A DNA stretch of 64,000 nt from Phycisphaera mikurensis NBRC 102666 (GCF_000284115.1 NC_017080.1:3401534-3465533), one strand, 5' to 3'. Counted from the first letter of the stretch, positions 7,029-37,906 are shown. Notes: generated by a model not told the origin, from the sequence alone. Numbers and translations are program-made.

Positions 7029-8096
7029 ATGCCCGAGACCGCCCCCTCCCCCGACGCGCCCGCCTCCACGCCCCACCAGCGCGTCCTGGTCACCGGCGGC
7101 GCCGGCTTCCTCGGCAGCCACCTGTGCGACCGGCTCGTGGCCCAGGGCCACGACGTCATCTGCCTCGACAACTTCTTCACCAGCCAGAAGACCAACGTGG
7201 CCCACCTCCTGGGCCAGCGCAACTTCGAGCTGATCCGCCACGACGTCACCGAGCCGATCACCCTCGAGGTCGACCGCATCTACAACATGGCCTGCCCGGC
7301 CAGCCCGGTGCACTACCAGTACAACCCGATCAAGACCATGAAGGTCTCGGTGATGGGCTCGATCAACCTGCTGGGCATGGCCAAGCGGACCGGCGCCCGG
7401 ATCCTGCAGGCCAGCACCAGCGAGGTCTACGGCGACCCCACGCCCGAGCACCACCCCCAGACCGAGAGCTACCGCGGCAACGTGAACCCCATCGGCGTGC
7501 GGGCCTGCTACGACGAGGGGAAGCGCGCGGCCGAGACGCTGTTCTTCGACTACTGGCGCAGCAACGGCGTGGACATCCGCGTGGTTCGGATCTTCAACAC
7601 CTACGGCCCGCGGATGCACCCCTTCGACGGGCGGGTCGTGACCAACTTCATCGTGCAGGCCCTCCGCGGCGAAGACATCACGCTCTACGGCGACGGCAGC
7701 CAGACGCGTAGCTTCTGCTACGTGGATGACCTCGTCGACGTGATCATGGCGATGATGGAGCACGGCGGGAACGCCGGGGGCGACCCCGAGACCTTCGTGG
7801 GTCCGGTGAACATCGGCAACCCCGGCGAGTTCACGATCCGCCAGCTCGCCGAGAAGGTGATCGAGCTGACCGGGTCGTCGTCGAAGCTGGTCGAGCTGCC
7901 CCTGCCCAAGGACGACCCGCTGCAGCGCAAGCCCGACATCTCGCTGGCCAAGGAGAAGCTCGGCTGGGAGCCCCGGGTCCCCCTGGCCGACGGCCTGCAG
8001 CGGACGATCGCGTACTTCAGGAGCGTGGACCTGGGCAGCTTCCGCAAGCCGACCGATCACACGGCCCACACCAGCAGCGACCGGTCCCGCATCTGA
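7029..8096 (+). CDS. uxs: UDP-glucuronate decarboxylase (UDP-xylose synthase), extended SDR family
   Basis: '[18 protein letters not shown]', the 'YDEGKR' catalytic YxxxK and '[10 protein letters not shown]' are highly characteristic of UXS/ArnA-decarboxylase-type enzymes. Confidence 0.9.
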
Positions 8097-16081: not shown

Positions 16082-16094
16082 GGGGGGGAGACTA

Positions 16095-16340
16095 AAGGAG
16101 CGGCCTGCGGCCGCGGCTTTTTCTGGAAGAGACGAAGAGACGAAGAGACGCGGCGGGCGCGGATCGGGAACCCGAATCAGGTTGCCGCTCCTGGCAGATC
16201 CACGCGCGCGGAGCCGCCACGCGCAGAGACGAAGTCAGCAAGATCAAGAACGCCGCGCGGAGCAACGACGCGCGTTGCCTGTCTCCGTCTCTTCGTCTCT
16301 CCGTCTCTTCGTCTCTCCGCCCCCCTCCCGTCTAGCCTCC
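16095..16340. repeat. Inverted repeats of (AGAGACGA)n around a roughly 150-bp core in the xylB / M48-peptidase divergent intergenic region
   Basis: 'gagacgaagagacgaagagacgcggcggg' at about 16117-16150 and its reverse complement 'gtctccgtctcttcgtctctccgtctcttcgtctctccgcc' at about 16282-16322 can be read directly in the sequence. Confidence 0.5.
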
Positions 16341-16369
16341 CCCGCCCACGCCCAAAAGGACGATCCTTC

Positions 16370-17233
16370 ATGCGATTCCGAACCCACCGATCCCGTGGCC
16401 GCGGCGCCTCCTCCCTGCTCGGGGGGCGCGGCGGCTCGCTCAAGATGCGGCTGTTGATCGGCGGCGGGCTCGCGCTGGTGGCGCTGTTCAGCTACTGGAC
16501 CGCGTCGGACGTGAACCCGATCACCGGCGAGAGCCAGCGGATCTCGATGGAAGAGGTCGAGGAGGTGCGGCTGGGCCTCGCCAGCGCCCCGCAGATGGCG
16601 TCGGAGTTCGGTGGCGTCTCCAGCAACGCGCAGGGCCAGCGCCTGCTCGAAGAGATCGGCAGACGCCTCGTCGCGGCGATCCCGGAGGTGTACCCCCAGG
16701 CCGGCGAGATCCCCTGGGAGTTCAGCTTCACGCTGCTCGAGGACGACCAGACGGTGAACGCGTTTGCGCTGCCCGGCGGCCCGACCTTCATCACCGACGC
16801 GCTCTTCGACCGGCTCGAGACCGAGGACGAACTCGCCGGCGTCATGGGCCACGAGATCGTGCACGTGATCCAGCGGCACGGGGCTGAGCGGATGCACAAG
16901 CAGAACCTCCTGCAGGGGCTCGCCGGCGCCGCCGTCGCGGGCACGGGCGAGTACACGGCCGCCGAGGTCGTCAGCTTCGTCGGCAACTTCAAGATGATGA
17001 GCTACGGCCGCGACCAGGAGACGCAGTGCGACCTGGAGGGTCTCAAGCTGATGGCCGCCGCCGGCTACGACCCCTACGGCATGGTCCGCGTGATGGAGGT
17101 GCTGGCCGGCGCCAGCGGCGGGGCGAGCGGGCCGGAGTGGGCCAGCAGCCACCCGTCCCCGGAGGGTCGGATCGAGACGATCAAGCGGGAGATCCAGCGG
17201 CTCGGGCTGGGGGATCGAGCCGGGGTCCGGTAG
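16370..17233 (+). CDS. M48-family zinc metallopeptidase (HtpX/BepA-like) with an N-terminal TM anchor
   Basis: ATG at 16370 inside track ORF 14315..17233. TM 'LLIGGGLALVALFSYW', the zincin motif 'GHEIVHVIQRHGAE', and a downstream 'E' and 'SSHPSPEGRIE'. Confidence 0.8.
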   Translation: MRFRTHRSRGRGASSLLGGRGGSLKMRLLIGGGLALVALFSYWTASDVNPITGESQRISMEEVEEVRLGLASAPQMASEFGGVSSNAQGQRLLEEIGRRLVAAIPEVYPQAGEIPWEFSFTLLEDDQTVNAFALPGGPTFITDALFDRLETEDELAGVMGHEIVHVIQRHGAERMHKQNLLQGLAGAAVAGTGEYTAAEVVSFVGNFKMMSYGRDQETQCDLEGLKLMAAAGYDPYGMVRVMEVLAGASGGASGPEWASSHPSPEGRIETIKREIQRLGLGDRAGVR

Positions 17234-24225: not shown

Positions 24226-24452
24226 CCCCCGAAGCTACCGCAACACGGCCGCCGGGGCCCCGCCCCAAGATCTCGGGCCTTCCCCAGGATCCTCCGCCCT
24301 TGCACCGGAGCCCGCCTTGGCGTCGCGGCCGGGCCGTGGAGGAGCTCCGGCCCCTTCCCGCGAGACGAGGCCGCGGCTGGGGTCTAGTGTCGACGGGACG
24401 TCGCCGGAGGAGGCGGCGTCATCCTCGGGTCGAGAAACGAAGGAGTGGTGAA

Positions 24453-24995
24453 ATGCGGATCCCAACGATGGGAGCGCTTGTGATTGGTGCCGCGGGCGCA
24501 AGCGGCGTCGCGGCTGCGCAGAGCGTGGAGGGGTCGATCGTGAGCGGCGGAACCACCGTCACCTCGGGCACGGCAACGCCGGGGCCGGGGGTGGAGTTCC
24601 GCGGCGAGGTCTTCCGCAACGAGATCTTCGGTGTCAACAGCGCCGACGCCTTCATCGACGTGGACGACGACGGGCTGGGCGCGAGCTTCGGGATCGAGCG
24701 GACGGCCGGCTCCGCCGGGGTGTCGTCCGAAACGCCGGTGACGTTCACGCTCTCTGGCGCCGCGGTCGCGGGCATCGCCTCGGTGGACCTGCTCGACGAG
24801 AGCTTCGGCCAGGACCGGCCCGTCGAGAGCAGCTTCCGCGGCGGCACGCTGACGGTGACGCTGACCAACGGCTTCTTCGTGGGCTCCTCCGACCCCAGCC
24901 GCGCGGCGGACTTCGGCTTCACGCCGATCCCCGAGCCCGCCGCGGCGGGGGTTCTCGCCCTCGGCAGCGCGGCTCTGCTCCGCCGGCGAGGCTGA
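24453..24995 (+). CDS. PEP-CTERM sorting-domain protein (exosortase substrate)
   Basis: ATG at 24453 is preceded by an AAGGAG Shine-Dalgarno at 24441-24446. There is a signal peptide, and the C-terminus 'TPIPEPAAAGVLALGSAALLRRRG' is a textbook PEP motif plus TM plus basic tail. Confidence 0.7.
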   Translation: MRIPTMGALVIGAAGASGVAAAQSVEGSIVSGGTTVTSGTATPGPGVEFRGEVFRNEIFGVNSADAFIDVDDDGLGASFGIERTAGSAGVSSETPVTFTLSGAAVAGIASVDLLDESFGQDRPVESSFRGGTLTVTLTNGFFVGSSDPSRAADFGFTPIPEPAAAGVLALGSAALLRRRG

Positions 24996-25013: not shown

Positions 25014-28000
25014 TCAGCTCCGGTCGCTGTTCTCGAGCTTGTCGATGACGCGGCCCCAGCGGTGGGTGAGCTTGTCGAGGGTCTGCTGCAGCTCGGTGAG
25101 CTGGCCGTCCTGGCGGGCGTTGACCTGGGCGAAGGGCTCGATCCAGCTCTGCATGATCTCGAATTGCTCCTTCATCACGTAGAGGAAGGTGTCGGGGATC
25201 TTGTTGACGACGCGGATCTCCTGCGGGTGCGTATCGCCGGTGGCTCGCTCCCCCCGGGAGCGTTGACTCCCGTCCAGCTTCGCAGCCGCCGCCTCCAACG
25301 CCGCCACGATCCCGGCGACGTCGACCTCCAGGTTCACCGGCGCCGGTGGCAAGCGGCCGTCGCGGACGGCCGAGGCGATCCCGCCGATCGCGGCGTTCAC
25401 CTTCGAAAGCTCGGCGATGGCCGCGGCGGTCGCGTCGCCGGACGAAACGGCGGCGGCGACGGAGGCCGCGGAGCCACTGATCTTGCTCAGCTCGGCGATG
25501 GCGGCGGCGGTCGCGTCGCCGGACGAAACGGCGGCGGCGACGGAGGCCGCGGAGCCACTGATCTTGCTCAGCTCGGCGATGGCGGCGGCGGTCGCGTCGC
25601 CGCCGAGTGCTCTGACGCTGTTGTTCCGCACGAAGGCGGACTTGATCTCCACCCACCGCTCTTCCTGCTCGGGTGTGAGCCCGAAGACCAGCTCGCGGAA
25701 CTTGAGCAGGTTGGCCTCGGCGCCGGTGGTGAGCGTCTGCGCATCCTGCTCGTAGGCGGAGACGATCAGCTCCCGCAGCTCCGCGTCGTTCATGACGGCG
25801 GAGACCTTCTCGGCGATGCGGTTCATGTTCCGGTAGCTGCCTTGCAGCAGGAACGGCGGCTCGGTGCGGTAGTCGTCGTCCTGACCGGCGGAGGCGATGT
25901 ACGCGAGGTTGACCTTCAGGATCACATCGCGGACGCGGGCCAGCTTCCGCACGACCTCGACCATCTCCGCCAGCTCGTCGGGCGGGAAGCTCCCGTCGAA
26001 CTCGACTCCGTCGGGCGAGGCGCCGCCGGCGAGGCGGATGACGCGGTGAACGTCGTCGCGGGTTGCCGTGGCCAGCGGGTTCAGCGCCGGGTTGCTGGTG
26101 AGCGCGTTCTCGAGGTAGCTCATCTCGAAGGCGTCGCCGTGCGCCCCGATGATGTCGCCGAGGTTGTACGTGTCGGCCCGGTTGCTGAGCATGTCCGGGA
26201 TGCGGAAGGCCTCGCCCGACTCCGTGTACGGGTTGCCGGCCATGACCACGGCGACCCGCCGGCCGCGGAAGTCGTAGGCCTTGGGCTTGCCGTGGCGGAC
26301 GCCCTCGATCCGGCGCTGGGCGTCGCAGAGGCTGATGAACTTCTGCAGGAACGCGGGGTTCGTGTGCTGGATGTCGTCGACGTAGACCATCACGTTGTCG
26401 CCCATCTCAAAGCCGAGGTTCAGCTTCTGCAGCTCCTCCTTCGCCGCGGCGTTGGTGGCCTCGGCGGGGTCCAGCGAAGTGACGCCGTGCCCGAGCGCCG
26501 GGCCGTTGATCTTGAGGAACACCATGCCCAGCCGGGCGCACACGTATTCCATCAGCGTCGTCTTGCCGTAGCCGGGCGGCGAGATGAGCAGCAGCAGGCC
26601 CATGCGGTCGGTCCGGGTGTCGGCGCCGGCGGTGCCGATCTGCTTGGCGAGGTTGTCGCCGATCAGCGGCAGGAAGACCTCGTCGAGCAGCCGATTCCGG
26701 ACGAAGCTGGTGAGCACCTTCGGCTTGAAGGTGTCGAGCCGCATCTGGTCGCGGGCTTCTTTAAGCACCTCGTGCTTGGTGTCGCTGAACGCCTCGAACG
26801 CGGCGACGCCGGCGGTGGCGAAGCGCCGCATGCGCGGGACCCAGACCGGGTAATCGATCGTCAGCTCGCCGCCGCGGATGCGGGGGTGGTCGCCGACGAG
26901 GTTCTCCACGCTGCGCGTTGGCGAGGCGTCGAGGACGCGGAGGTTGTTCTCACCTCCGGCGAGGCGCAGCGCAACTTCCGGGTCACGATCCCAGGTGCGG
27001 GCGAGGCGGAAGCGCTCCACGGCATCCGGAGCCGCTTCGAGCGCGGCGGCGAGCGGCTCGCCCGCCGTCTCGCGCAGCGAGGCGGCGGACGCAACCGCCC
27101 CGCCGCTCGCCGCGAAGCGGACCTCGCCGCCGATCCCCGCGAGGCCGACCTCGGCGGCGAGCACGGCAACGGCCTCGTCGGCTTGCTCGGCCGTGAACCC
27201 CCCGACCTCCTCCGCGAATCCGCGGACCGTGGCCTCCAGCGCCGGGAAACCTCCACGGTCCGCGGCATCCGCCTCTGCCTCTGTGCCTCCTCTGTGCCTC
27301 TGTGCCTCCGTGTCCTCTGCGTTCCGCGAAGCGGGTCCCGGAGACGCGGCCGCGGCGGCGTTGGCGAGGCGGAGGTGCCACAGCTTCCGCTCATCGTCGG
27401 TGGCGCCGGCCTCCCACCAAAGCTGCGCCAGCACCCGAGCGGGGGCGGAGAAGCGGAGCGTGCCCAGCGTGTCCCGCAGCTCGACCAGGGCCGACAGGAT
27501 CTTCGCCGCGTCGGCGTCGTGGACGCCCTTCACGTAGCCCTCGGCGTAGCGCGGCGCCATGTACGCCTGCACCGCCTCGACGGAGGTGCCCGCGCCCGCT
27601 TCGAGCATGAGGTACGCGAGGTACTCCGCCCGGTACACGCTCGCGGACTCGCTGACCAGCGCCTGGTCCCACCGCGCAGACGCTCCACGCAGGCGGGGAT
27701 CCGCAACCTCCTCGAAGAACTGCGTGCCGGTGACGTGCAGCACCGGCGTGTCGTCGCGGTGCACGAGCGTCAGGTCGATCGGCTGCGTGCTGATCGCGAA
27801 GGTGTGCCGGCCGAAGCGGATCGTGTCGCGGCCGCCGCCCTGCAGGTCGAGCCGATCCTTGAGCCGCCGGACGGCGTCCTCCTTCGCGGCCTTCAGCCCC
27901 GCGCGCAGGTCACCCTCGCGTACCCGGTCGTCCATCCCGCCCAGCTCGTCCGCGAGGTCGCGGAGCTTCTCGACCATCAGGTCGCCGGCGAAGTAGGCGT

Positions 28001-30416
28001 TGATCTCCTCGACCGCGTCCATCGACTCGACCCGCGAACGGACCGTCCCGAGGATCCGTTCCGCCGCCCGGGCGAGCGTGTCGGCCCGCTGGTTCTTCTG
28101 CTCGACGAGCGCGAGCCTTCGCTGCTCGAAGGCCGCGAGCACCTCCTCGCGCTTCTCGATGAGCACCCCGACGAAGTCGTCGAAGCCGCCGAAGCTCGCT
28201 TCGAGTTCCTCGACCTGGACCATCAGCTTCGCGAGCGAGGCGTCGGCCTTCTCGGGCGTGTCGGCCAGCTCCAGCGCGTTGGTGATGCTCTGCTCCAGCA
28301 GCTTCAGCCGGGAGGCGAACTCGGCGGCGCCTTCCTGTTGGCCCAGCTCCTGCCGCCGGGCCCGCAGCCGGGAGCGGGTGGCGTTCAACCGGGAGAAGAC
28401 CTCGGAGATCGCCTCGACCACCGCGGTCCGCTGCGTCGCGTCGTCGATGTCGAGGTTGTTGACGACGTCGATCAGCAGCTCCAGCTCGCCGGCTGCCTCG
28501 GCGACTTCGTCGCCGAGGGCTTCGGCCTCGGCCGCGGTGGCGAGGGCACCGACGGCTTCGTCCTGCGCCCGGACCCGATCGCGGTACGGGTCCAGCGCGT
28601 CGTCGCGGAGCAGGAACGAGAGCGTCTTCTGCGAGACGGCCTCGGTCTGATCGACGACCTCGGCCTCCATCGCCTCGACCTCGCCCGGGTCGACATGCCG
28701 CAGCTCGCGGAGGCCGATGACCTCGCCGCGGACCGCCCGCAGCGCCGCGAGCGTCTCGACGTACCCGCCGACCTCGTCGGGGTTCGCCACGCGGGCCGAG
28801 GCGATCGCGGCGTCGACCTCCGACCGCACCTCCGCGACGGCCCGGGCCGTCTCGCGTCGCTGCCGGGTCAGCTTCTCGTACTCCCCCACCGCCGCGGCCG
28901 CCGCGTCGCGGATGCCCGCCAGCGGCTCGGCCACCCGCGCGGCGGCATCTTCTCCTAGCCAGAAGTAGGTGTCCAGCAGGTCACCGGCCTGCTTGACGAG
29001 GTCGGCGTACAGCGATTGGTAGAGGTCCTCCCGCGTCGCGAGCCCGAGCACCTGCCGGGCCTCGGCCATGGCCCGGACCACGTCGCGGTTGCCGATCCGC
29101 TTGAGCGGGTTGTCGTCCCCCCCGCCGGCCACCGCGGGCGCGACGTGGTCGGGCCCCACGAACGGAGTCGTCCAGTTCTGCACCGCGTGGTGCTTCTGCG
29201 GCTCGGCGCCCTCCGGAGACTTGAACAGCAGCAGCCGCCCGTCGTCGCGGAAGGCGTAGCCGTTGCACACGATCGGCGCGGCGACTTGGCGGGCGATCAG
29301 GTTGTACGCGAACAGCACGTAGACGCCCCGCTCCCGCTGGTAGAAGACGTAGAGGAAGTCCTCTCCATTCGGAGACACGACCCTGCGGTCGAAGGTGAGC
29401 CCGCCCGGGGCCGCCACCAGGTCCGCCACCGCCGCGAACACCTGCTTCTCGCCGGTGGCGAGGTACACGCCGTCGGCGGTCATCACGCCCTGGTCCTCGG
29501 GCAGCAGCACCGCGGCAGTGCCCAGGCCGTCGGCCCGGACCGCGGTGCCGAGCTTCGTGTTGAAGACGAAGTGCCGCCACGCCTTCTCGCGGTACGGGCG
29601 GATGCGCAGCAGGACCAGCGGGCCCTCGACCACGTACAGCACGTCGGCGTCGTCGAGGCCCTGGTCCGGCTCGTCCACCGGCTCGGCCAGGATGCCCTCG
29701 CCCGTCTCGGTGTTGTTCTCGACCTTGATGGTCAGGTCGCCCCCGGTGGTCTCGACGAAGACCAGGTCCTCGATCGAGTAGTGCGGGAACCGCCCGCCGG
29801 TCTGCATGTCGCGGGTCACGCGTTTCCACGCGAAGTCGTGCTGGGGCGGGTAGGTGACCTCGTGGTCGGATCGATTGCCGAGGTAGGCCAGACCTTCTCC
29901 TTCTTGTCCTGACTCGCCGGGGGCGAATGCCCACTTGAACGCCTTGAAGTCGTCGACGGTCCGGCCGGTCCGGAACTTCATGTAGACGTGGGGCCCGCGG
30001 CGGAAGAACTTGGTGAAGCGTGCGTCCTTGTAGAAGCGCATCAGGTCGGTGAAGTCCTTCCTGAAGCTCTCGTTCTCCAGCAGCCCGAGGCCGTCGTCGT
30101 GGAAGACCGCTTCGTCGTCCTGCCGGTAGCAGGCGAAGACGTCGCCGAGGTCGACGGTGCTCTTGAGGCCGAAGTGCACGTTGAAGCCCATCAGCACGCG
30201 GTCGCCGACGGCCACGATGTCCCGCGGCACGCAGGCGTGCGCCGTGGTCACCCGCGAGGTGCCGGCCAGCGCGAGCTCGACGCTGCCGAACGCCTCCTTC
30301 CGCTTCGCGTTGAGCGCCTCGAGCCGCTCCCGCAGCTCTCTCGCCTGCGCATCGAGCCGCCCGCGGAGCACGTCGTAGGAAGACCGGTCGAGCTGTTCGG
30401 GTGGGGCGTCAGGCAT
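25014..30416 (-). CDS. Giant (1800 aa) AAA+ ATPase with a coiled-coil region, C-terminal tandem repeats and a conserved C-terminal domain; family unknown
   Basis: Protein-like composition across the whole ORF. Walker A 'LLLISPPGYGKTTL', Walker B 'VMVYVDDIQ' and the 'VAVVMAGNPYTESGEAFRIPDMLSNRADTYNLG' sensor region sit at about residues 1215-1400 (AAA_5/MoxR-like). A long E/A/R-rich helical middle fits a coiled coil. Three 26-aa repeats '..AAIAELSKISGSAASVAAAVSSGDAT' lie at residues about 1585-1660. The gene is immediately downstream of the flotillin and NfeD genes, in the same orientation. Confidence 0.75.
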   Translation of the reverse strand: MPDAPPEQLDRSSYDVLRGRLDAQARELRERLEALNAKRKEAFGSVELALAGTSRVTTAHACVPRDIVAVGDRVLMGFNVHFGLKSTVDLGDVFACYRQDDEAVFHDDGLGLLENESFRKDFTDLMRFYKDARFTKFFRRGPHVYMKFRTGRTVDDFKAFKWAFAPGESGQEGEGLAYLGNRSDHEVTYPPQHDFAWKRVTRDMQTGGRFPHYSIEDLVFVETTGGDLTIKVENNTETGEGILAEPVDEPDQGLDDADVLYVVEGPLVLLRIRPYREKAWRHFVFNTKLGTAVRADGLGTAAVLLPEDQGVMTADGVYLATGEKQVFAAVADLVAAPGGLTFDRRVVSPNGEDFLYVFYQRERGVYVLFAYNLIARQVAAPIVCNGYAFRDDGRLLLFKSPEGAEPQKHHAVQNWTTPFVGPDHVAPAVAGGGDDNPLKRIGNRDVVRAMAEARQVLGLATREDLYQSLYADLVKQAGDLLDTYFWLGEDAAARVAEPLAGIRDAAAAAVGEYEKLTRQRRETARAVAEVRSEVDAAIASARVANPDEVGGYVETLAALRAVRGEVIGLRELRHVDPGEVEAMEAEVVDQTEAVSQKTLSFLLRDDALDPYRDRVRAQDEAVGALATAAEAEALGDEVAEAAGELELLIDVVNNLDIDDATQRTAVVEAISEVFSRLNATRSRLRARRQELGQQEGAAEFASRLKLLEQSITNALELADTPEKADASLAKLMVQVEELEASFGGFDDFVGVLIEKREEVLAAFEQRRLALVEQKNQRADTLARAAERILGTVRSRVESMDAVEEINAYFAGDLMVEKLRDLADELGGMDDRVREGDLRAGLKAAKEDAVRRLKDRLDLQGGGRDTIRFGRHTFAISTQPIDLTLVHRDDTPVLHVTGTQFFEEVADPRLRGASARWDQALVSESASVYRAEYLAYLMLEAGAGTSVEAVQAYMAPRYAEGYVKGVHDADAAKILSALVELRDTLGTLRFSAPARVLAQLWWEAGATDDERKLWHLRLANAAAAASPGPASRNAEDTEAQRHRGGTEAEADAADRGGFPALEATVRGFAEEVGGFTAEQADEAVAVLAAEVGLAGIGGEVRFAASGGAVASAASLRETAGEPLAAALEAAPDAVERFRLARTWDRDPEVALRLAGGENNLRVLDASPTRSVENLVGDHPRIRGGELTIDYPVWVPRMRRFATAGVAAFEAFSDTKHEVLKEARDQMRLDTFKPKVLTSFVRNRLLDEVFLPLIGDNLAKQIGTAGADTRTDRMGLLLLISPPGYGKTTLMEYVCARLGMVFLKINGPALGHGVTSLDPAEATNAAAKEELQKLNLGFEMGDNVMVYVDDIQHTNPAFLQKFISLCDAQRRIEGVRHGKPKAYDFRGRRVAVVMAGNPYTESGEAFRIPDMLSNRADTYNLGDIIGAHGDAFEMSYLENALTSNPALNPLATATRDDVHRVIRLAGGASPDGVEFDGSFPPDELAEMVEVVRKLARVRDVILKVNLAYIASAGQDDDYRTEPPFLLQGSYRNMNRIAEKVSAVMNDAELRELIVSAYEQDAQTLTTGAEANLLKFRELVFGLTPEQEERWVEIKSAFVRNNSVRALGGDATAAAIAELSKISGSAASVAAAVSSGDATAAAIAELSKISGSAASVAAAVSSGDATAAAIAELSKVNAAIGGIASAVRDGRLPPAPVNLEVDVAGIVAALEAAAAKLDGSQRSRGERATGDTHPQEIRVVNKIPDTFLYVMKEQFEIMQSWIEPFAQVNARQDGQLTELQQTLDKLTHRWGRVIDKLENSDRS
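25400..25640. repeat. Roughly 78-bp direct tandem repeats (about 3 copies) inside the giant ATPase gene; they encode 26-aa protein repeats
   Basis: 'gctcggcgatggc.gcggcggtcgcgtcgccggacgaaacggcggcggcgacggaggccgcggagccactgatcttgctca' recurs at about 25411, 25491 and 25572. Confidence 0.7.
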
Positions 30417-30457
30417 CAGCGGTGTCGCTCGTGGTTCGGATGCTGCGGGGCGGGAGG

Positions 30458-30988
30458 TGTACGAGCGGCGCTTCGCTTGATCACAGAGAGCACAGAGGCA
30501 CAGAGGCCACAGAGAGGCACAGAGGTTGGGGCTCAGGCTTGGTCGGCGATCACGCGGCGGCTGTGGTCTCGGATGTTGTCGCCGTGGAAATTGATCAGGA
30601 GGCCCAGTGGCAACTGCATTGCGCGGAGATAAGTGATGACCTGGTCGCGATGAGCATCGTGGAGTCGCTCTACAGCCTTCAACTCGATCACGAGCTCGCC
30701 CTCGACAAGGAGATCCACCTTTCCTTCGCCAACCACCACGTCCTTGTAAACCAGCCGGACCGAAACCTGCCGCTCGAAGGAGATGCCACGCGAACCCAAC
30801 TCGACAGCCAGCGCATTCTCGTAGGTCTGCTCCCTGAATCCCGCACCCAGTGCCGAATGCACCTCCATGGCGGCACCCAACACCCGCCCGGTCAGTTCGC
30901 TGTCGCTCATCTTCTTCCTCCGTGCCTCTCTCTGTGGCCTCTGTGCCTCTGTGCTCTCCGTGTTCAAGCGAAGCGCTGCCCGCACGCA
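30458..30988. mobile_element. MITE-like cassette: GxxExxY gene bracketed by roughly 58-bp imperfect inverted repeats built from CACAGAGG-type units
   Basis: Left arm 30458-30520 is 'gcgcttcgcttgatcacagagagcacagaggcacagaggccacagagaggcacagagg'. Right arm 30911-30988 is 'cctccgtgcctctctctgtggcctctgtgcctctgtgctctccgtgttcaagcgaagcgc'. The right arm is the reverse complement of the left with a few mismatches and one 2-bp indel. Confidence 0.55.
30533..30910 (-). CDS. GxxExxY protein (PD-(D/E)XK nuclease-fold family)
   Basis: 125 aa from 'MSDSELTGRVLGAAMEVHSALGAGFREQTYENALAVEL' (GxxExxY motif). 'DLLVEGELVIELKAVERL' fits D..E.K PD-(D/E)XK geometry. Start at cat 30908-30910; the track ORF extends 25 codons upstream into the repeat arm. 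Confidence 0.8.
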   Translation of the reverse strand: MSDSELTGRVLGAAMEVHSALGAGFREQTYENALAVELGSRGISFERQVSVRLVYKDVVVGEGKVDLLVEGELVIELKAVERLHDAHRDQVITYLRAMQLPLGLLINFHGDNIRDHSRRVIADQA

Positions 30989-31001
30989 GCTGACTCCCGA
31001 A

Positions 31002-32999
31002 TCACCCCCCGATCTCGCTGAGGCGTTTGTCGCTCGCGCCCGTGGCTTTGGCGAGGCCGAGCAGGCCTTTCAGCTCGCCGAGCAGGCCCTCGTCGTCGGA
31101 AGAGGCCATGGCTTTGCCGAGCAGCGCGGCGATGGTGAGGTTCTTCACGTCCTCCGAGGACACGCCGGTCTGCTGGACGAGCTCCTTGAGCCGGCCGCCG
31201 AACTCGCCGTTGGACAAAGCTCCCCCCGGGCCGTCGCCGGAGAGCTGAGACGCGATGCGCTCGACGTGCTTGGAGTTGTCGACGAAGCGGTCGACCTGCT
31301 TGCCGCGGGTGATCGCGTTGATGAGGTTGTCGAAGAAGACGCCGTCGCCGCCGACGATGTCGATGTTCGCGGACTTGAGCGCCTCGGCCAGCACCCTCGC
31401 CTGCTCGGCGGCGATGTCCTTCTGGATGCCAATCTCGGCGAGCTCGACCTGGAGCCTCCGCTCCAGCTCCAGCTTGAACTCCTCGTGCTCCTTGCCCACG
31501 CCGTCGAGCTTCCGCATCGCCTCGGCCTTGGCCGCGACGGCCTCGGCCTCGGCGTTGCCCTTGGCCCGCATCACCTGCGCCTCGGCGGCGCCGTACTTGT
31601 CGAGCGCCCCGGCCTGGGCGTCCATCACCTCGGCTTCGGCCAGGCCCGCGGCGGCCTTCTCGGCCTGCAGCGCCTCGGCCATCTTCATCTTGCCCAGCGC
31701 CTCCTGCTCGGCCGCCTCGCGGTGGGCGCCCGCCTCGATGAGGATTTCCTCGGCCTGGAACTTCGCGGCCAGCTGCCCGGCCTCGGCCTTCTGCACTTCC
31801 TGCACCTTGGCCTCCTCCGCCTTGGCCTGGGCCGCGGTGACGCTGACGGTCTTCGCCCGCTCGGCGGCGGCGACCTCTTCGGTGTCCTTGATCTTCTCCT
31901 GCTCCTCGACGACCGCCCGCTCGACGACGACCCGCTCGCGGATGACGTCCTGGATCTGGCGGCGCTGCTCCTCGAGCGCCTTCTCCTTCTCGATCTCCGC
32001 CAGCTCCACCACGCGCTCGCGCTCGGTCGCTTCGAGCCCCTTCTCCCGCAGCACGCGCTCGCTCTCGACGGCGTCGGTCTTCTCCTTGGCCTTGGCCGCG
32101 ACCAGGATCTGGCGGAGCTTGTTCTGCTCGGCGATGCCCAGCTCCTCCTCGGTGCTGATGCGGGCCCGCTCGCTCTTGAAGCGTTCCTCCTCCTCGACCT
32201 TCTGGGCCTCGGCCTGCTCACGGGCCTTGACGCTGGCGATCTCGCGGGCCTGGCGGTCTTCCGCCTCCTCCTGCTGACGCTCGAGCTCGAGGATCGCCTC
32301 GCGGGCCTCGACGTCCTGCTTCTTGATCGTCTTCTCCTTCTCGCGGGCGATGCTGTTGGACAGCACCGCCTCTCTCGCGGTCAGGTCGGTGATCTTCTTG
32401 ATCCCCTCGGCGTCGAGGATGTTGCTGGGATCGAGCTGCTTGAGGTCGGTCTGCTCGAGGTAGTCGATCGCCGCGTCGTCGAGCACGTAGCCGTTCAGGT
32501 CCGTGCCGATGTGGGCGAGGATCTCGTTCTTGAACTTCTCCCGCTCGGTGTAGAGCTCGGTGAAGTCGAAGCTCTTGCCGACGGTCTTGAGCGCCTCGGA
32601 GAACTTGGCGTCGAAGAGGTCCACCAGCGCCTGGATGTCGCTGGCCCGGCGGCAGCCGATGCTCTGGGCGACCTGCAGCACGTCGGCGCTGGCGTTGTTC
32701 ACGCGGACGAAGAAGGCGACCTTGATGTCGGCCCGGACGTTGTCCTTGCAGTTGAGCCCCTCGGAGCCGTGGCGGTAGATCTCGATCCGCTTCACCGAGA
32801 TGTCCATGAACTCGGCGCGGTGCATGATCGGGATCACCGGGATCCCCGAGAAGGTGACCTTCGTGGGACCCACGCCGGTCCGCACCAGCGCGGTGCCCTG
32901 CTCGACCTTCACGAAGAACTTCGCGAGCATCGTGAGGAAGCCCACGGCGATGACCAGGAGCCCGACGACGACGACGGCGATGACGATGGCGGTTTGCAT
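31002..32999 (-). CDS. Flotillin-family SPFH-domain protein (YqiK/FloT-like), 665 aa
   Basis: N-terminal TM 'IVIAVVVVGLLVIAVGFL', then an SPFH domain, a very long E/A/K/R-rich coiled coil, and a C-terminal flotillin-like tail. Confidence 0.85.
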   Translation of the reverse strand: MQTAIVIAVVVVGLLVIAVGFLTMLAKFFVKVEQGTALVRTGVGPTKVTFSGIPVIPIMHRAEFMDISVKRIEIYRHGSEGLNCKDNVRADIKVAFFVRVNNASADVLQVAQSIGCRRASDIQALVDLFDAKFSEALKTVGKSFDFTELYTEREKFKNEILAHIGTDLNGYVLDDAAIDYLEQTDLKQLDPSNILDAEGIKKITDLTAREAVLSNSIAREKEKTIKKQDVEAREAILELERQQEEAEDRQAREIASVKAREQAEAQKVEEEERFKSERARISTEEELGIAEQNKLRQILVAAKAKEKTDAVESERVLREKGLEATERERVVELAEIEKEKALEEQRRQIQDVIRERVVVERAVVEEQEKIKDTEEVAAAERAKTVSVTAAQAKAEEAKVQEVQKAEAGQLAAKFQAEEILIEAGAHREAAEQEALGKMKMAEALQAEKAAAGLAEAEVMDAQAGALDKYGAAEAQVMRAKGNAEAEAVAAKAEAMRKLDGVGKEHEEFKLELERRLQVELAEIGIQKDIAAEQARVLAEALKSANIDIVGGDGVFFDNLINAITRGKQVDRFVDNSKHVERIASQLSGDGPGGALSNGEFGGRLKELVQQTGVSSEDVKNLTIAALLGKAMASSDDEGLLGELKGLLGLAKATGASDKRLSEIGG

Positions 33000-33039
33000 G
33001 GGGTTTCTCGGCCTTGGGTGGTCAGGGGGTCAGGAAGCA

Positions 33040-33185
33040 GGGAGCAGAGCCGCAGAGGACGCAGATGGCCGCAGAGGGAAGAGGGGAAGGATCGAGTTGG
33101 ACTGGAGCAGCAGCTGAAGGGACGGAGCTGGGGGTTGTGCGGGAGCCTGGTCTCGGCTTTGCGTTCCTCTGCGTCCTCTGCGGGT
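33040..33185. repeat. Inverted repeat 'cgcagaggacgcagagg' / 'cctctgcgtcctctgcg' in the NfeD-flotillin intergenic spacer, related to the CAGAGG repeat family
   Basis: 'gccgcagaggacgcagatggccgcagaggg' at about 33046-33075 and 'gttcctctgcgtcctctgcgggttg' at about 33162-33186 are reverse complements. They are separated by about 90 bp. Confidence 0.5.
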
Positions 33186-33210
33186 TGACTCGGATCGACT
33201 CACCACGACC

Positions 33211-33930
33211 TCAGAACGCGGCGACGTAGTAGACGCGGGACTCGTCGTCCTCCGCGACCAGGACGGCTTCGTCGCCCTTGTTCAGGACGACGCTCTCGTC
33301 GCGGGTGCGGGCGTGGAGCTTGAGGGGGGCGCCGGCGGTGGCGACCTCGACCTGGCCGCCGCGGGTGTCGACGGTCAGCGAGGAGACGGTGCAGCGGCGG
33401 CCGAGCAGCTTCAGGTTGCTTTCGGCCTCGCTGTCGGCCTCCATCGTCTTGACCATTCTTGCGATCGGCATCGTCACGAGCTTCATGACGATCAGCGAGA
33501 CGAGCAGCACGGGGACGAAGAAGAGCAGCTGGAAGAGCAGGCCCCAGCCGCCGAAGACCGGGTACGCGAGCACGCCGATGGCCCAGAGCGACAGCAGCAG
33601 CACCGACCACAGGACCAGGATCGGCACGCGGCCGACGTTGAGGAACTCCAGCGTGTCGCCGACGAAGCCGTGGGCGCCGACGTCGCCGTCCACGTCGGCG
33701 TCGCCGGCGTCGAAGTCCAGGTCCAGCGAGTCGATGCCGACGGCACCGAGGATCACCACGAGCCAGTAGAGGCCCGTGACGCACAGCAGCACGCTCAGCA
33801 CCAGGTTGACCGGGCTCGCGACGCAGGCGTTGAAGAAGTCGATCACCAAGTCCGCCCTTCGCCACGCGGTCGCTCCCGGGTTGCGGCCGCGTGGGGAGGC
33901 TCGGAAACTCCCCCGGGGGGAGACTCGCAT
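33211..33930 (-). CDS. YqiJ/NfeD-like membrane protein with a C-terminal OB-fold domain
   Basis: Hydrophobic N-terminal half ('VNLVLSVLLCVTGLYWLVVILGAV', 'ILVLWSVLLLSLWAIGVLAY', 'FFVPVLLVSLIVMKL') and a C-terminal beta-rich 'GRRCTVSSLTVDTRGGQVEVATAGAPLKLHARTRDESVVLNKGDEAVLVAEDDESRVYYV' typical of the NfeD OB domain. Placement immediately upstream of flotillin is canonical. Start is uncertain (ATG 33930 or an internal GTG). Confidence 0.6.
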   Translation of the reverse strand: MRVSPRGSFRASPRGRNPGATAWRRADLVIDFFNACVASPVNLVLSVLLCVTGLYWLVVILGAVGIDSLDLDFDAGDADVDGDVGAHGFVGDTLEFLNVGRVPILVLWSVLLLSLWAIGVLAYPVFGGWGLLFQLLFFVPVLLVSLIVMKLVTMPIARMVKTMEADSEAESNLKLLGRRCTVSSLTVDTRGGQVEVATAGAPLKLHARTRDESVVLNKGDEAVLVAEDDESRVYYVAAF

Positions 33931-33995: not shown

Positions 33996-36122
33996 TCAGC
34001 GGGTCCAGGCGCGGCCCGCCAGCGCTTCGAGCACGAGCAGAGCGAGCACGACCCAGAGCAGACCGGCGGCGAGGGAGGCCCGCGCCGGGTCGCCGGCGAA
34101 GGCGGCGGCGGGGTCGTCGGCGGGGAGGAACGCGACGGGCCCGAGGCCGGCGTACGCGGCGGCGACGCGGGAGGCCGCCTGGCCGGTGGTGTCGGCCGGG
34201 GCGGGCGAGACCACGGTTCCGCCGGAGAGGCCGGCACGGCCGCCCGTCGCGTCGCCCGCGGCGGCGACGGCCGGCTCCGCCTCGGCGCGGGCGGCGACGG
34301 CGGCGAGCAGGCCGTCGCGCAGCAGCGCGGGGAAGAGCGGCTTGGCCGGCAGGTTCGTCCAGGCGGGATCGAGGGCGGTGGCGAGGTAGACGACGCGGCC
34401 GGCGGCCTCGGCGGAGCGGGCGGAGGCGGTGAGCGGCACGCCCGCGGCGGAGCGGATCCAGACGTCGGCCGGATCGACGCCGGCCGGCGCCGCGAGCCGA
34501 TCGATGCGGAGCGGGCGGAGAAGCGCCTCCCACTGGCCGGCGAGCAGCGCGAGCGTCGCGGGAGCGGGCCGGGAGGCGTCGGCGCGGATGGGCCCCTCGG
34601 CGCCCTCCGCCGCGGGGGACGGCCGCCACGGGAGGCCCAGCGCCTCGAACAGCGCGCCCAGGCCGGCTCCGGGCTCGTCTTCGGGTGCCGCGGCGGAGGG
34701 CGTGACCCAGGCGGCACCGCCGGCGGCGACGAACGCGGCGACGGACGCGCGGCCCGCCGGGCCCAGCGCGGCGGGGTCGAGCGTGACGACGGCGTCGAGC
34801 GTGTCGTCGCCGCCTCCGGGCGGGACCAGCGCCACCGGCGAGCCGAGCGGGCGGACCGCAAAGCCGGTGCCCTCCCCCAGCGCCGCGGCGGCGAAGTCGG
34901 AGGGCGCGAGGCCGCCGTCGGCCGATTCCCCGCCGAGCAAGCCCACGCGCACGGCCTCCACCAGCTCCACGCGGGCGAGGCCGGCGTCGTCGGCGGCGAC
35001 GGCGTCGCCGGCGGGCGGATCCAGCGTGGCGAGCAGCAAACGGCGGCCGGGCGCGAGCGGCTCGGGCGCCTCCAGCGGGACGCGCACGACCGCCTCGGCG
35101 ACGCCGGCGTCGAGGGTGACCTCGCGGCGGCCGGTTGCGAGCGCCGGCCGCTCCGCGAGCGCCGCGAGCGGGGTGAAGCCGGCGGCGGCCGCGGGTTCGA
35201 CCAGCTTGACGACGACGGAGGCGTCGGCCGCCGCGCCGGCGGCGCCCGCGGCTTCGCCCGCCCGGCGGACCCGCACGAGGGCCTCGAGCCGGCCCGCCGA
35301 GCGGGACGCGGCGGCGTCACCCGCCGCGACCACCGCCCGCGTCGGGCGGACGCCGCCGAGGGCGAGGTTCGGCACGCCGGCCGCCGGCCGCGACAGCCAG
35401 ACCCGCGGACCCACGCCGTTTCCGCCCTCCGGGGCCCACGGTCCGCGGCCGGCCACGCCCTCCTCGGGGAAGTGGGGGGAGAGCACGACCACCGCGGCCT
35501 CGCGGCCGGCGGCGGCGTCGGCACGGGCCGCCTCGGCGACGCGCGGGAGCACAGCCTCCCGGGCTGGCGCGGCGTCGGTCACGCCAAGGCCGGCGACCCG
35601 CTGGCGGGCGGCCGCGGGGGCAAGCGACGGCGGATCGCCGGCGTCCCCGCCGCCGGCGAGCGGCCAGATCCGCACGCGGTCCGCGGGGTCGAGCGAAGCG
35701 AGCACGGCGTCGGCTTCACGCAGGGAGCGGGCGAGGAAGGCGTCTTCCTCGCCCGGCAGCCGTGCACCCGACGCGATCCCGTTGTCGATCACGAGGTCCA
35801 CCGACCGCCCCGCGGCCCCGGCGACCCCCAGCGCCGAGGCGAGCCGCCCGCTCACCAGCGGCCCCGCCAGCGCGAGCCCGAGCAGCACGAGCAGCAGGCA
35901 GCGGCAGCCCAGCAGCAGCCACCGCTCGAAGCGGAGCCGGCGACGCTGCTTCTGGATGGCCTCCCGCAGGAAGCGCATCGCCGCCCACGGGCGCTGCTTG
36001 CGGCGTCGCCGCGAGAGCAGGTGCAGCGTGACCGGCACCGCCACCGCCGCGACGCCCGCCACCGCGAGCGCCGGCGCGACCAGCGAGGCGGCGGCCTGGG
36101 CGAGAACGAACGGAGCCTGCAT
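33996..36122 (-). CDS. BatA-like / N-terminal double-transmembrane-domain protein (aerotolerance-regulator N-terminal type), 708 aa
   Basis: The N-terminus 'FVLAQAAASLVAPALAVAGVAAVAVPVTLHLLSRRRRK...WLLLGCRCLLLVLLGLALAG' is the characteristic two-TM BatA N-terminal domain. There is a C-terminal TM helix. It sits directly downstream of DUF58 in the same operon, which is the typical arrangement. Confidence 0.55.
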   Translation of the reverse strand: MQAPFVLAQAAASLVAPALAVAGVAAVAVPVTLHLLSRRRRKQRPWAAMRFLREAIQKQRRRLRFERWLLLGCRCLLLVLLGLALAGPLVSGRLASALGVAGAAGRSVDLVIDNGIASGARLPGEEDAFLARSLREADAVLASLDPADRVRIWPLAGGGDAGDPPSLAPAAARQRVAGLGVTDAAPAREAVLPRVAEAARADAAAGREAAVVVLSPHFPEEGVAGRGPWAPEGGNGVGPRVWLSRPAAGVPNLALGGVRPTRAVVAAGDAAASRSAGRLEALVRVRRAGEAAGAAGAAADASVVVKLVEPAAAAGFTPLAALAERPALATGRREVTLDAGVAEAVVRVPLEAPEPLAPGRRLLLATLDPPAGDAVAADDAGLARVELVEAVRVGLLGGESADGGLAPSDFAAAALGEGTGFAVRPLGSPVALVPPGGGDDTLDAVVTLDPAALGPAGRASVAAFVAAGGAAWVTPSAAAPEDEPGAGLGALFEALGLPWRPSPAAEGAEGPIRADASRPAPATLALLAGQWEALLRPLRIDRLAAPAGVDPADVWIRSAAGVPLTASARSAEAAGRVVYLATALDPAWTNLPAKPLFPALLRDGLLAAVAARAEAEPAVAAAGDATGGRAGLSGGTVVSPAPADTTGQAASRVAAAYAGLGPVAFLPADDPAAAFAGDPARASLAAGLLWVVLALLVLEALAGRAWTR

Positions 36123-36158
36123 CGGCGGACGCTACGGGAGCGGACGGACGCCCGCGGG

Positions 36159-37172
36159 TCAGGCCCGCATCGCGGAGGAGCGCTGGGCGAGGGCGGCGGC
36201 GAGCTGCGCGCCCGGCGGCTCGTCGGTGCGCATCAGGCGGTGGTCGTAGCCGAAGCGGGTGCAGGCGGCGCCGACGGCGGCGAGGTGCTCCCCAACGGCG
36301 GCGCGGTAGGCCTTCCGCAGCGACCTGGGGTCGGCACCGACGCGGCCGCCGCCCTCGAGGCCGACGAACTCGGCTGGCTCGTCGCCGCCGGGCCCGCTGC
36401 CCAGGTCCAGCTCCACCGGATCGAGCACCTGCAGCACGAGCGTGTCGTGGTTCGCTCCGCCGTGCCGCAGCCGGCCCAACGCCGACTCCAGCGCCGCGAC
36501 CGGGTCGAGGAGGTCGGCGAGGATCACGACGAGCCCGCGCCGGCCGCCGCCGCCGCCCAAGCCGCCGGCGATGCGGCCGGCGGCGGCGAGGAGGCCCGCG
36601 CCCCGGTCGTCTTCCTCGGCGGCCTCCCCGCCGGACGCCTCGGCCTCGGCCACGCCCGCCGCGTCGAGCGCGGCGGTGACTTCCTCGGCGTGGCCCGACG
36701 CGTTGCTCGGCGGCAGGCCGCCGCTCACGCCCGCGTCGAACAGCACGAGCCCGACGCGGTCGCGCTGGCGGGTGCCCAGGTGCGCGAGCGTGCCGGCGAG
36801 CACGGCGGCGTGGTCGAACTTGCTCCAGGCGTCCGGCCGCGTCCGGCCGCCGGGCCGGACCGCACCGCCGGCGCCACCCGCGAAGCGCATCGACGCGGAC
36901 CGGTCGACGGCGAGGGTCAGCTCCAGCTGGCTCTCCCGCTCGAACTGCCGCAGGTGGGCCTTGTCGGTGCGGGCGAGCACCTTCCAATCGAGGTGCCGCA
37001 GGTCGTCGCCGGCGACATAGGGCCGGTGCTGCGCGAACTCGGTGGAGACGCCGGAGAGCGGCGTGCGGTGCCCGCCGGAGAGCAAGCCCTCAACGACGAG
37101 GCGGCTGCGTAGCTCGACCCCCTCGACGGCGCGGAGCGTCTCGGGATCGGGATGGAGGCTTCTCTCCGGCAC
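36159..37172 (-). CDS. DUF58 protein (MoxR-associated, vWA-like)
   Basis: 'EFAQHRPYVAGDDLRHLDWKVLARTDKAHLRQFERESQLELTLAVDRSASM' is the DUF58 signature. Confidence 0.8.
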   Translation of the reverse strand: MPERSLHPDPETLRAVEGVELRSRLVVEGLLSGGHRTPLSGVSTEFAQHRPYVAGDDLRHLDWKVLARTDKAHLRQFERESQLELTLAVDRSASMRFAGGAGGAVRPGGRTRPDAWSKFDHAAVLAGTLAHLGTRQRDRVGLVLFDAGVSGGLPPSNASGHAEEVTAALDAAGVAEAEASGGEAAEEDDRGAGLLAAAGRIAGGLGGGGGRRGLVVILADLLDPVAALESALGRLRHGGANHDTLVLQVLDPVELDLGSGPGGDEPAEFVGLEGGGRVGADPRSLRKAYRAAVGEHLAAVGAACTRFGYDHRLMRTDEPPGAQLAAALAQRSSAMRA

Positions 37173-37192
37173 GCGCGGAGGCTAGTGCCGCG

Positions 37193-37906
37193 TCACGCCG
37201 CGATCCGCGGGTAGAGGCTCAGCAGCTTGATCCGGGCGTCATCGGCGGTGAACTGCCAGTGCACGCCTCGCTGGCTCTGGTTGCGAGCGGCCGCCCAGGC
37301 TCGGGCCTCGCGATCGATCTCCTGGATGGTGTCGATCCGTCGGCCGAGGCATTGCCTTGAGAGCACACTCAGTTCGCACTCGGCGATGTTCAGCCACGAA
37401 CCGTGGGCCGGCGTGTGCACCAGCTCGATCCGCTCAGCGATCCGCCGCGCCTCTGCTGCCTCGAATGCTTCGTACAACGACGCGATCCTGTGGGTGTTCA
37501 GGTTGTCGCACACCAGGCGGATCCGCGTCGCTGACTCGTAACGCGGGGCGTCCACCAACGCCTGGATCTGGTGGGCCCAGTCCGCCGCGGTGCGTCGCCG
37601 ACTGGTCCGAACGTCCCGCCACCCAGCCAACGGCTCGGTGAACATCCACAGGTTGCAGGTGCCGTGCCGCACGTACTCGTGGTCCTCGATCCGACGGCCG
37701 GTGGAGTCGGTGAAGCGGCGGCGGGTCTCGCCGATGAGCTGCTTGGGCTGCTCGTCCATGCACACCACCGGCAACGCCGGGTCGTAGGCGAGCGCGTACA
37801 GGCACAGCACCGCCTCCATGGCCGCGACGAAGGCCGCGGACTGCTCCGGCGGGATGCACCACATCTTCTTCCTCCACGGCTTCAGGCCGTTTTTTGAAGA
37901 GCGCAC
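37193..37906 (-). CDS. IS630 transposase OrfB (DDE catalytic domain), probably expressed as an OrfAB fusion by -1 frameshifting
   Basis: DDE motifs 'VVCMDEQPKQL', 'LVCDNLNTH' and 'HTPAHGSWLNIAE'. The overlap with OrfA covers the plus-strand 'cgttttttgaag' at 37893-37904, which is 'CTTCAAAAAACG' on the coding strand. Confidence 0.8.
   Translation of the reverse strand: MRSSKNGLKPWRKKMWCIPPEQSAAFVAAMEAVLCLYALAYDPALPVVCMDEQPKQLIGETRRRFTDSTGRRIEDHEYVRHGTCNLWMFTEPLAGWRDVRTSRRRTAADWAHQIQALVDAPRYESATRIRLVCDNLNTHRIASLYEAFEAAEARRIAERIELVHTPAHGSWLNIAECELSVLSRQCLGRRIDTIQEIDREARAWAAARNQSQRGVHWQFTADDARIKLLSLYPRIAA

Follow-up and report, generated by a model that had tools for sequence, protein, structure and literature searches.

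A conserved YqiJ-flotillin-ATPase module in Phycisphaera mikurensis and a possible role of its giant AAA+ ATPase in flotillin remodelling

The gene pairs yqiJ-yqiK of Escherichia coli and yuaF-floT of Bacillus subtilis are SPFH2-NfeD2 operons according to Hinderhofer et al. (2009, PMC2636767), where an ATPase is not mentioned. A larger arrangement was described from sequence analysis by Ravi et al. (2024, mSystems 9:e00847-23, PMC11237479): an operon that encodes, in order, CesT/Tir, PspA, YqiJ/YuaF and Band-7/flotillin proteins and an ATPase combining a beta-propeller, a coiled coil and an AAA+ domain. Its prototype is that of Dokdonia donghaensis, for which the same gene string appears in their Table S3. 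These authors also reported "abbreviated operons", restricted to flotillin, YqiJ and, in some cases, the ATPase; these operons, which lack the PspA dyad, have a wider distribution. For the ATPase, their paper provides neither quantification nor a structure model nor an experiment. Here, we analyse a locus of this kind in Phycisphaera mikurensis NBRC 102666, situated in a stretch of 64,000 nt (NC_017080.1:3401534-3465533; about 72% GC) that we call the window and to whose first letter all coordinates refer unless a locus in another genome is named. A preliminary description of this stretch had paired an NfeD-flotillin operon with a giant ATPase and knew of no described version of the combination; the operon of Ravi et al. 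is such a version.

The four open reading frames (ORFs) of the locus, encoding an NfeD-like protein, a flotillin, a small cassette protein and the giant ATPase, are present as first described, all on the minus strand, and judged by codon-position GC there is no real gene on the opposite strand between them. The module opens with the gene of a YqiJ/YuaF-type (NfeD2, DUF1449) membrane protein (33211-33930, with a putative start codon), identified by BLASTP to YqiJ and by hydropathy. It is followed, after a gap of 211 bp as compared with a median of 42 bp in other loci, by the gene of a flotillin-type SPFH scaffold protein (31002-32999), recognized by Band_7 and by alignment to YqiK, in which an N-terminal transmembrane segment precedes the SPFH domain, a long coiled coil rich in glutamate and alanine and a C-terminal tail. 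The third gene, a cassette of 378 bp (30533-30910) encoding 125 amino acids (aa), specifies a GxxExxY/PDDEXK_3 nuclease fold (PF13366). The fourth (25014-30416) encodes a cytoplasmic AAA+ ATPase of 1800 aa which, by Pfam and hydropathy, belongs to the DUF3686/DUF7902 family and carries the RefSeq name "DNA repair ATPase".

The window locus is an abbreviated form of the operon of Ravi et al., with a co-directional set of three genes. It shares with that operon the three core genes, their order and the architecture of the ATPase; unlike the full form, it lacks CesT/Tir and PspA genes throughout the 64 kb, and searches for PspA, CesT and XRE homologues across the entire window found none. Two further differences are the GxxExxY cassette, whose insertion between the flotillin and ATPase genes is lineage-specific, and a C-terminal extension of the ATPase of about 170 aa that includes a 27-aa repeat. 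The two-gene core is also that of E. coli yqiJ-yqiK and B. subtilis yuaF-floT, but in E. coli there is no ATPase gene on the 3' side, where sibD/ibsD follow yqiK.

To see how general the arrangement is, we scanned one genome per species, which returned at least 568 loci encoding a relative of the ATPase, and compared the best 80 with flanks of 10 kb. These loci belong to Bacteroidota (33), Planctomycetota (17), Verrucomicrobiota (17), Desulfobacterota (5), Bacillota (5), Kiritimatiellota (1) and Omnitrophota (1), with one unclassified. Six of them, in which the upstream sequence is shorter than 700 nt, were excluded, leaving 74 informative loci; in 67 of these (91%), a flotillin homologue with 36-57% identity to that of the window lies directly 5' of the ATPase gene on the same strand. 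At least 54 loci have a YqiJ-like gene 5' of flotillin. All-against-all clustering of ORFs yielded the YqiJ-like, flotillin and ATPase families as the only general neighbours, and no other window gene recurs as a conserved neighbour in the 80 loci. The triad is also found in annotated records from Streptomyces (Actinomycetota), Deinococcus (Deinococcota), the Pseudomonas plasmid pQBR103 (Gammaproteobacteria) and Hymenobacter. The module spans at least ten phyla, seven in the locus set and three from annotated records, and its shared order and strand are far beyond chance. Adjacency of ATPase homologues to SPFH/NfeD genes, which the preliminary description had proposed to look for in other genomes, is therefore the rule, and this linkage supports its view of a single conserved, membrane-associated and uncharacterized unit made up of the NfeD-flotillin pair and the giant ATPase. 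Mean identities across phyla are 48% for the ATPase and 53% for flotillin, which is unusually high. The pairwise identities of the two proteins correlate across 53 loci with a Spearman coefficient of 0.55, a value that lends the linkage weak support only, because shared phylogeny alone yields such a correlation.

The ATPase itself is less exotic than the "unfamiliar architecture" it was first credited with, since its combination of Pfam DUF3686, DUF7902 and AAA domains is catalogued and fixed. Residues 27-485 match DUF3686 (PF12458) over the full profile (positions 1-448) with an E-value of 7e-179 and 595.5 bits against a cutoff of 25; residues 606-690 (28347-28601) match DUF7902 (PF25472; E 7e-27, 93.9 bits, cutoff 26); and residues 1275-1398 give weak matches to AAA_5 (25.4 bits, cutoff 22) and AAA. 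Hydropathy reveals no transmembrane segments. There are more than 2,156 homologues, and all 120 of those listed have the same domains and length. When residues 1-500 were used to search 1.84 billion cluster representatives, only 697 clusters were retrieved. Full-length members of the DUF3686 clusters always measure 1.6-1.9 kaa and carry the domain at their N-terminus, which marks the family as a single fixed architecture. The protein thus maps onto a known family, but not onto one with a described role.

Two AlphaFold2 models, covering residues 1-900 and 851-1800 and built from alignments of 42 sequences, assign folds to most of the chain. In the first (mean predicted local distance difference test score, pLDDT, of 84), an N-terminal helix (residues 11-43) is followed by a predicted beta-propeller of about seven blades (residues 46-420; 29157-30281, minus strand), which forms the core of DUF3686 and in which about 28 beta-strands are arranged in sets of four between residues 49 and 416. 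A Foldseek search with this model returned only beta-propellers, among them the WD40 domain of DCAF1, tricorn and the propeller of prolyl-oligopeptidase, with E-values of 1e-5 to 1e-3. The N-terminal region of about 430 aa, initially regarded as unrecognized, is therefore DUF3686 with a propeller fold. Behind the propeller, about 420 aa (residues 437-858; 27843-29108, minus strand), including DUF7902, are modelled as long helices and bundles of helices. The second model (mean pLDDT 76) contains a small beta-domain, a helical domain, one AAA+ module and a helical C-terminal tail of low confidence. The single AAA+ module is MoxR-like (residues ~1229-1600; 25617-26732, minus strand): its alpha/beta fold is closest to MoxR structures, at a sequence identity of about 13-15%, and together with the Pfam AAA_5 match this bears out the MoxR/AAA_5-like core that had been proposed. 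On the minus strand, it comprises a Walker A motif, SPPGYGKTT (26556-26582), a Walker B motif, VMVYVDDIQH (26364-26393), and a predicted pre-sensor-1 beta-hairpin (26265-26315). The Walker A motif SPPGYGKTT, the stretch VYVDDIQH of Walker B, the sensor-1 residue N1395 and the conserved arginine R1413 are invariant among homologues. Sequence searches of the PDB with the ATPase, flotillin and YqiJ-like proteins found no solved relative.

The final ~170 aa, composed of a repeat region rich in alanine and serine and a terminal helix pair, occur in long homologues only, mostly from Planctomycetota and Desulfobacterota, while in most other lineages the homologue alignment ends at about residues 1600-1720 and usually near 1600-1650. 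Within this lineage-specific extension, Tandem Repeats Finder and translation delineate 2.5 copies of an 81-bp tandem repeat (25397-25602, minus strand), corresponding to an A/S-rich unit of 27 aa and not of 26 as previously noted. At the very end lies a helical segment (residues 1733-1800; 25017-25220, minus strand), modelled with low confidence, in which N1738, P1741, Q1751, F1752, M1755, W1758 and P1761 are invariant; the C-terminal domain is thus conserved, as had been stated, but only in the homologues of about 1,800 aa, again mostly planctomycetal and desulfobacterial. A database protein of P. mikurensis named "DNA repair ATPase, partial" is 100% identical to the window protein over residues 1-1606 and stops exactly at the start of the repeat, probably where a draft contig broke.

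The two membrane proteins of the module are readily related to their E. coli counterparts. Flotillin has a single N-terminal transmembrane segment (residues 1-33, by hydropathy) and aligns with YqiK over 516 aa at 29% identity (E 1e-37). Its residues 1-223 alone match Band_7/SPFH (PF01145; E 6e-11, 43.1 bits, cutoff 23.6), whereas the full-length protein gives no Pfam match, probably because the composition-bias filter of HMMER rejects the long E/A-rich coiled coil. With 665 aa, it exceeds YqiK (553 aa) by additional conserved segments around residues 465-560 and a longer tail; residues 441-665 have no Pfam match, to the flotillin C-terminal model or any other, even at an E-value of 10, and the same region is conserved among ATPase-linked flotillins. 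The YqiJ-like protein has about three transmembrane segments and a soluble C-terminal tail by hydropathy, aligns with E. coli YqiJ by BLASTP over 198 aa, which is nearly the whole length, at 23% identity (E 4e-7), and scores slightly below the cutoff for Pfam YqiJ_N (21.7 bits versus 23; E 2.5e-4).

Extended forms of the module also occur in the set. In Bacteroidota, CesT_Tir_1 and PspA/IM30 genes open the operon in 16-18 loci, reproducing the full form of Ravi et al. On pQBR103 of Pseudomonas fluorescens SBW25 (L086 1-12217), genes for PspA, a rhomboid protein, DUF2491, DUF350 and DUF1190 proteins and glutathionylspermidine synthase are followed by the triad, and this well-studied megaplasmid offers a genetically tractable carrier of the module. 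A helix-turn-helix regulator of the LexA-family/XRE type is encoded divergently from the CesT-PspA-YqiJ-flotillin-ATPase operon in Bacteroidota (L011 4326-5108; Hymenobacter plasmid L090 2580-3365), that of Hymenobacter being named LexA-family in RefSeq, which suggests control of the bacteroidotal operon by a self-cleaving repressor released under stress.

With a probability of slightly better than one half (about 0.55), we favour the view that the ATPase remodels flotillin assemblies at the membrane, and PspA assemblies where these are encoded, and that it does not act in DNA repair. This view draws on the linkage to flotillin and YqiJ across phyla, on the recurrence of PspA, which provides a membrane-stress context, and on the architecture of the protein. 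The ATPase would be a cytoplasmic motor, probably ring-forming, whose propeller and long helical arm attach it to the flotillin coat on the cytoplasmic side of the membrane; powered by ATP, it would build, take apart or reshape oligomers of flotillin (and PspA) during membrane maintenance or envelope stress.

Several known systems pair an oligomeric membrane coat or cage with a ring ATPase, namely HflK/C with FtsH, prohibitins with the m-AAA protease, and ESCRT-III with Vps4. The same logic of coat or cage plus ATPase would apply here. In Bacteroidota and on pQBR103, the module includes PspA, the bacterial relative of ESCRT-III. In a narrower and decidedly tentative version of the proposal, the DUF3686 ATPase could be a dedicated machine for the assembly or disassembly of flotillin coats, and of PspA/ESCRT-III-like polymers where their genes accompany the module, a bacterial functional counterpart of Vps4 with a MoxR-like engine and with propeller and arm for coat binding. 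The typical MoxR ATPases, such as CbbQ, NorQ and RavA, have about 250-500 aa, work with a partner carrying a VWA domain and remodel targets such as Rubisco and NorB. The action proposed here would have a parallel in theirs. From these ATPases, the DUF3686 protein differs by its 1,800 aa, its propeller and long helical arm and its lack of a linked VWA gene.

A number of points speak against flotillin remodelling. That the ATPase touches flotillin is inferred solely from the linkage of their genes. The Walker B motif has DD in place of DE, so that ATP hydrolysis is assumed. Classical MoxR ATPases use a VWA-domain partner, whereas none is part of the module; a conserved partner gene of this kind was found nowhere across the 80 loci. 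Seven loci (L020, L025, L026, L034, L037, L054 and L062) have the ATPase but no flotillin within the available 5' sequence of 1.5-10 kb. Conversely, Ravi et al. (PMC11237479) state that pairs of YqiJ and flotillin genes lacking the ATPase have the wider distribution, which makes the motor dispensable for flotillin as such. Because terminator-like hairpins and insertions are so common at the flotillin-ATPase junction (see below), the two genes are possibly not co-transcribed. Finally, we found no paper on the DUF3686/DUF7902 ATPase family beyond that of Ravi et al., and hence no experiment on it.

The same linkage fits equally well an alternative in which flotillin and YqiJ corral membrane proteins or damaged membrane patches, and the ATPase extracts, unfolds or matures clients gathered there and leaves flotillin itself alone. 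FtsH inside HflK/C cages and MoxR ATPases that mature metalloenzymes provide analogies; the MoxR-like fold agrees with this idea, as known members of that family mature or activate other enzymes, and beta-propellers are typical platforms for substrate recognition. However, no conserved gene for a client, a VWA adaptor or a protease accompanies the module in the 80 loci, and the sole recurrent additions, PspA and CesT/Tir, are themselves a membrane-coat and a chaperone protein. We therefore regard a client-directed activity as rather unlikely, though it is the alternative that fares best.

The junction between flotillin and the ATPase deserves a separate account, since here the locus is less compact than it appeared. 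In the window, the cassette ORF matches PDDEXK_3 with an E-value of 5e-39, its GxxExxY motif reading GFREQTY, and it is flanked by inverted-repeat arms of 58 nt that are 91% complementary and whose sequence occurs only twice in the window. A repeat search placed the arm on the flotillin side, with CACAGAGG-like motifs, at 30928-30985, starting 16 bp past the flotillin stop codon, and the arm on the ATPase side at 30459-30516, 42 bp 5' of the ATPase start codon. The latter distance had been given correctly; the 91 bp quoted between flotillin and the right arm are instead the distance to the cassette ATG. When the spacer of 585 nt (30417-31001) is folded as RNA, a stem of about 70 bp closes the whole cassette, with a free energy of -301 kcal/mol and a z-score of -8.65. 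Scans of the operon strand at this junction detected neither a hairpin with a U-run, as in a terminator, nor a sigma-70 promoter, but such scans are uninformative for a planctomycete with 72% GC. The closest relative (78% identity; L081/L082) has an orthologous cassette at the same site and an intact ATPase gene. The inverted-repeat arms (compared between the window and L081 3099-3179 and 3578-3658) are more conserved than the coding sequence of the cassette; selection may act on the stem, as RNA or as DNA, or cassette copies may undergo gene conversion with one another. A relative with 59% identity (L083) has no cassette, and its spacer of 138 bp holds a hairpin (7871-7992) with 45-nt arms that consists of short G/A-rich tandem motifs; this hairpin may be an empty site or what is left of a similar element.

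In the 67 linked loci, spacer length has a median of 165 bp; ten spacers are shorter than 50 bp and one gene pair overlaps. At the other extreme, 23 of the 67 junctions exceed 400 bp and hold unrelated small genes, including another PDDEXK_3 gene, IS200-like Y1 transposases, DUF559, SHOCT, AbiEii and others (insertion-bearing spacers are, for example, L016 9481-10001, L018 6671-7414, L022 9355-9980, L033 5455-6365 and L040 7955-9458). Small mobile or selfish genes appear to have inserted into this spacer repeatedly in different phyla, with PDDEXK_3/GxxExxY genes in both Phycisphaera and Akkermansiaceae. Folding of spacers that measure 50-350 bp indicates strong structure, with a median z-score of -2.4 and values below -3 in 14 of 33. 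Of 59 junctions from other genomes, 24 (L006 9873-10000, L071 9885-9994, L047 7529-7618, L055 9894-9976 and 20 other loci) have a hairpin with a U-rich run no more than 200 nt from the flotillin stop codon, compared with 27 of 294 intragenic flotillin windows (9%; Fisher p 2e-8 versus junctions) and 21 of 75 regions 3' of the ATPase gene. Thus, although no strong terminator or promoter was seen between flotillin and the ATPase in the window, terminator-like hairpins are common at this position elsewhere, and the statement that the flotillin operon "runs straight into" the ATPase gene was too strong, given these hairpins and the mobile cassette with its long stem. Co-transcription of the two genes is uncertain.

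These features could be accommodated as follows. The ancestral YqiJ-flotillin pair may keep a partial terminator or a stabilizing hairpin at its end, as a result of which less ATPase than scaffold protein would probably be produced, the ATPase gene being transcribed either by read-through or from a promoter of its own. Selfish elements that seek hairpins would land repeatedly in the spacer; in the Phycisphaera lineage, this would have been the GxxExxY cassette, with the module left unbroken.

The PDDEXK_3, IS200-like Y1 transposase, DUF559 and AbiEii genes attracted by the junction, and the presence of the module on some megaplasmids, might also be taken to indicate a conflict or anti-phage system, in which the propeller-AAA+ protein senses infection and flotillin and YqiJ are the effectors or organizers of an abortive response. 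In L083, Mrr_cat and HSDR_N genes lie about 2 kb 3' of the ATPase gene (15212-16771), probably by coincidence. We consider such a function very unlikely. PADLOC models match none of the three core proteins, and the cassette protein bears only a weak resemblance to Cas4 by PADLOC. No copy of the module was found in 50,697 phage records, and the matches in plasmid records, 13 of 72,556, are mostly to chromids. The high conservation across phyla (48% and 53%) and the single architecture are unlike those of defence genes, which diversify fast, and the flanking genes vary and look ordinarily chromosomal, apart from PspA and CesT/Tir and the polyamine genes of pQBR103.

The 585-bp spacer, the mobile cassette and its very stable stem, along with the terminator-like hairpins common at the junction in other genomes, could be read to mean that in P. 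mikurensis the adjacent genes have no functional coupling: the cassette with its stem of 70 bp would split the locus into two transcription units, and the ATPase might be silent. This is most unlikely, for no interruption breaks the 1,800 codons of the ATPase ORF, its codon bias is strong (GC at third codon positions of 0.89) and all catalytic motifs are kept, and both the cassette and an intact ATPase gene have been retained in the 78%-identical relative since the lineages split; separate transcription would, moreover, be compatible with a functional link.

Least probable of all is that the database name is right and the ATPase a RuvB-like motor for DNA repair or processing, next to flotillin incidentally or for membrane-tethered DNA transactions: a weak similarity to RuvB at the P-loop (Pfam RuvB_N, E 1e-3; NCBIfam RuvB, E 4e-4), the presence of RuvB among Foldseek matches and the divergent LexA-family/XRE regulator of Bacteroidota can be cited in its favour, but the scores fall far short of the cutoffs (19.5 and 16.9 bits versus 282 and 299 for NCBIfam RuvB; 19 versus 27 for Pfam RuvB_N), Pfam finds no DNA-binding domain in the ATPase, its conserved partners in at least ten phyla are membrane proteins, and our literature search found no paper that supports the name. 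The name probably originated from this RuvB-like stretch, where local similarity extends around the P-loop and Walker B (DDIQH in the ATPase, DEIHR in RuvB).

Beyond the module, genes for a BatA-family protein, a DUF58 protein and a DDE_3 transposase are located on its 5' side on the same strand (33996-37906). The BatA-family gene, encoding 708 aa, has a GC content of about 81% and a strong AT skew. BatA and DUF58 proteins are the usual partners of a small MoxR ATPase; the gene for such an ATPase was not located, and the DDE_3 transposase may have disrupted a BatA/DUF58 operon. The BatA and DUF58 genes were considered as members of the module and rejected, as they adjoin the ATPase in none of the other loci compared. 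On the 3' side, a convergent ORF on the plus strand (24300-24995) terminates 19 bp from the ATPase stop codon; it has no Pfam match, and its product ends in a hydrophobic stretch and an RRRG tail, resembling a PEP-CTERM sorting signal.

The linkage of the ATPase to flotillin and YqiJ is not new, having been published from sequence in 2024; what we add is its confirmation, with numbers, a fold assignment and the biology of the junction. The RefSeq/Pfam label "DNA repair ATPase" is unsupported and probably misleading. The function of flotillins is still debated in both bacteria and eukaryotes, and we know of no described enzyme that builds or dismantles flotillin assemblies. An ATPase that is kept beside flotillin in about 90% of the genomes that carry it is the most obvious candidate for such a partner. 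If it is indeed a dedicated machine for flotillin coats, no flotillin-specific motor would have been known before it, and its "DNA repair" name would be a database error that has spread to thousands of genomes. Testing this would provide a handle on the dynamics of flotillin and on membrane repair in bacteria.

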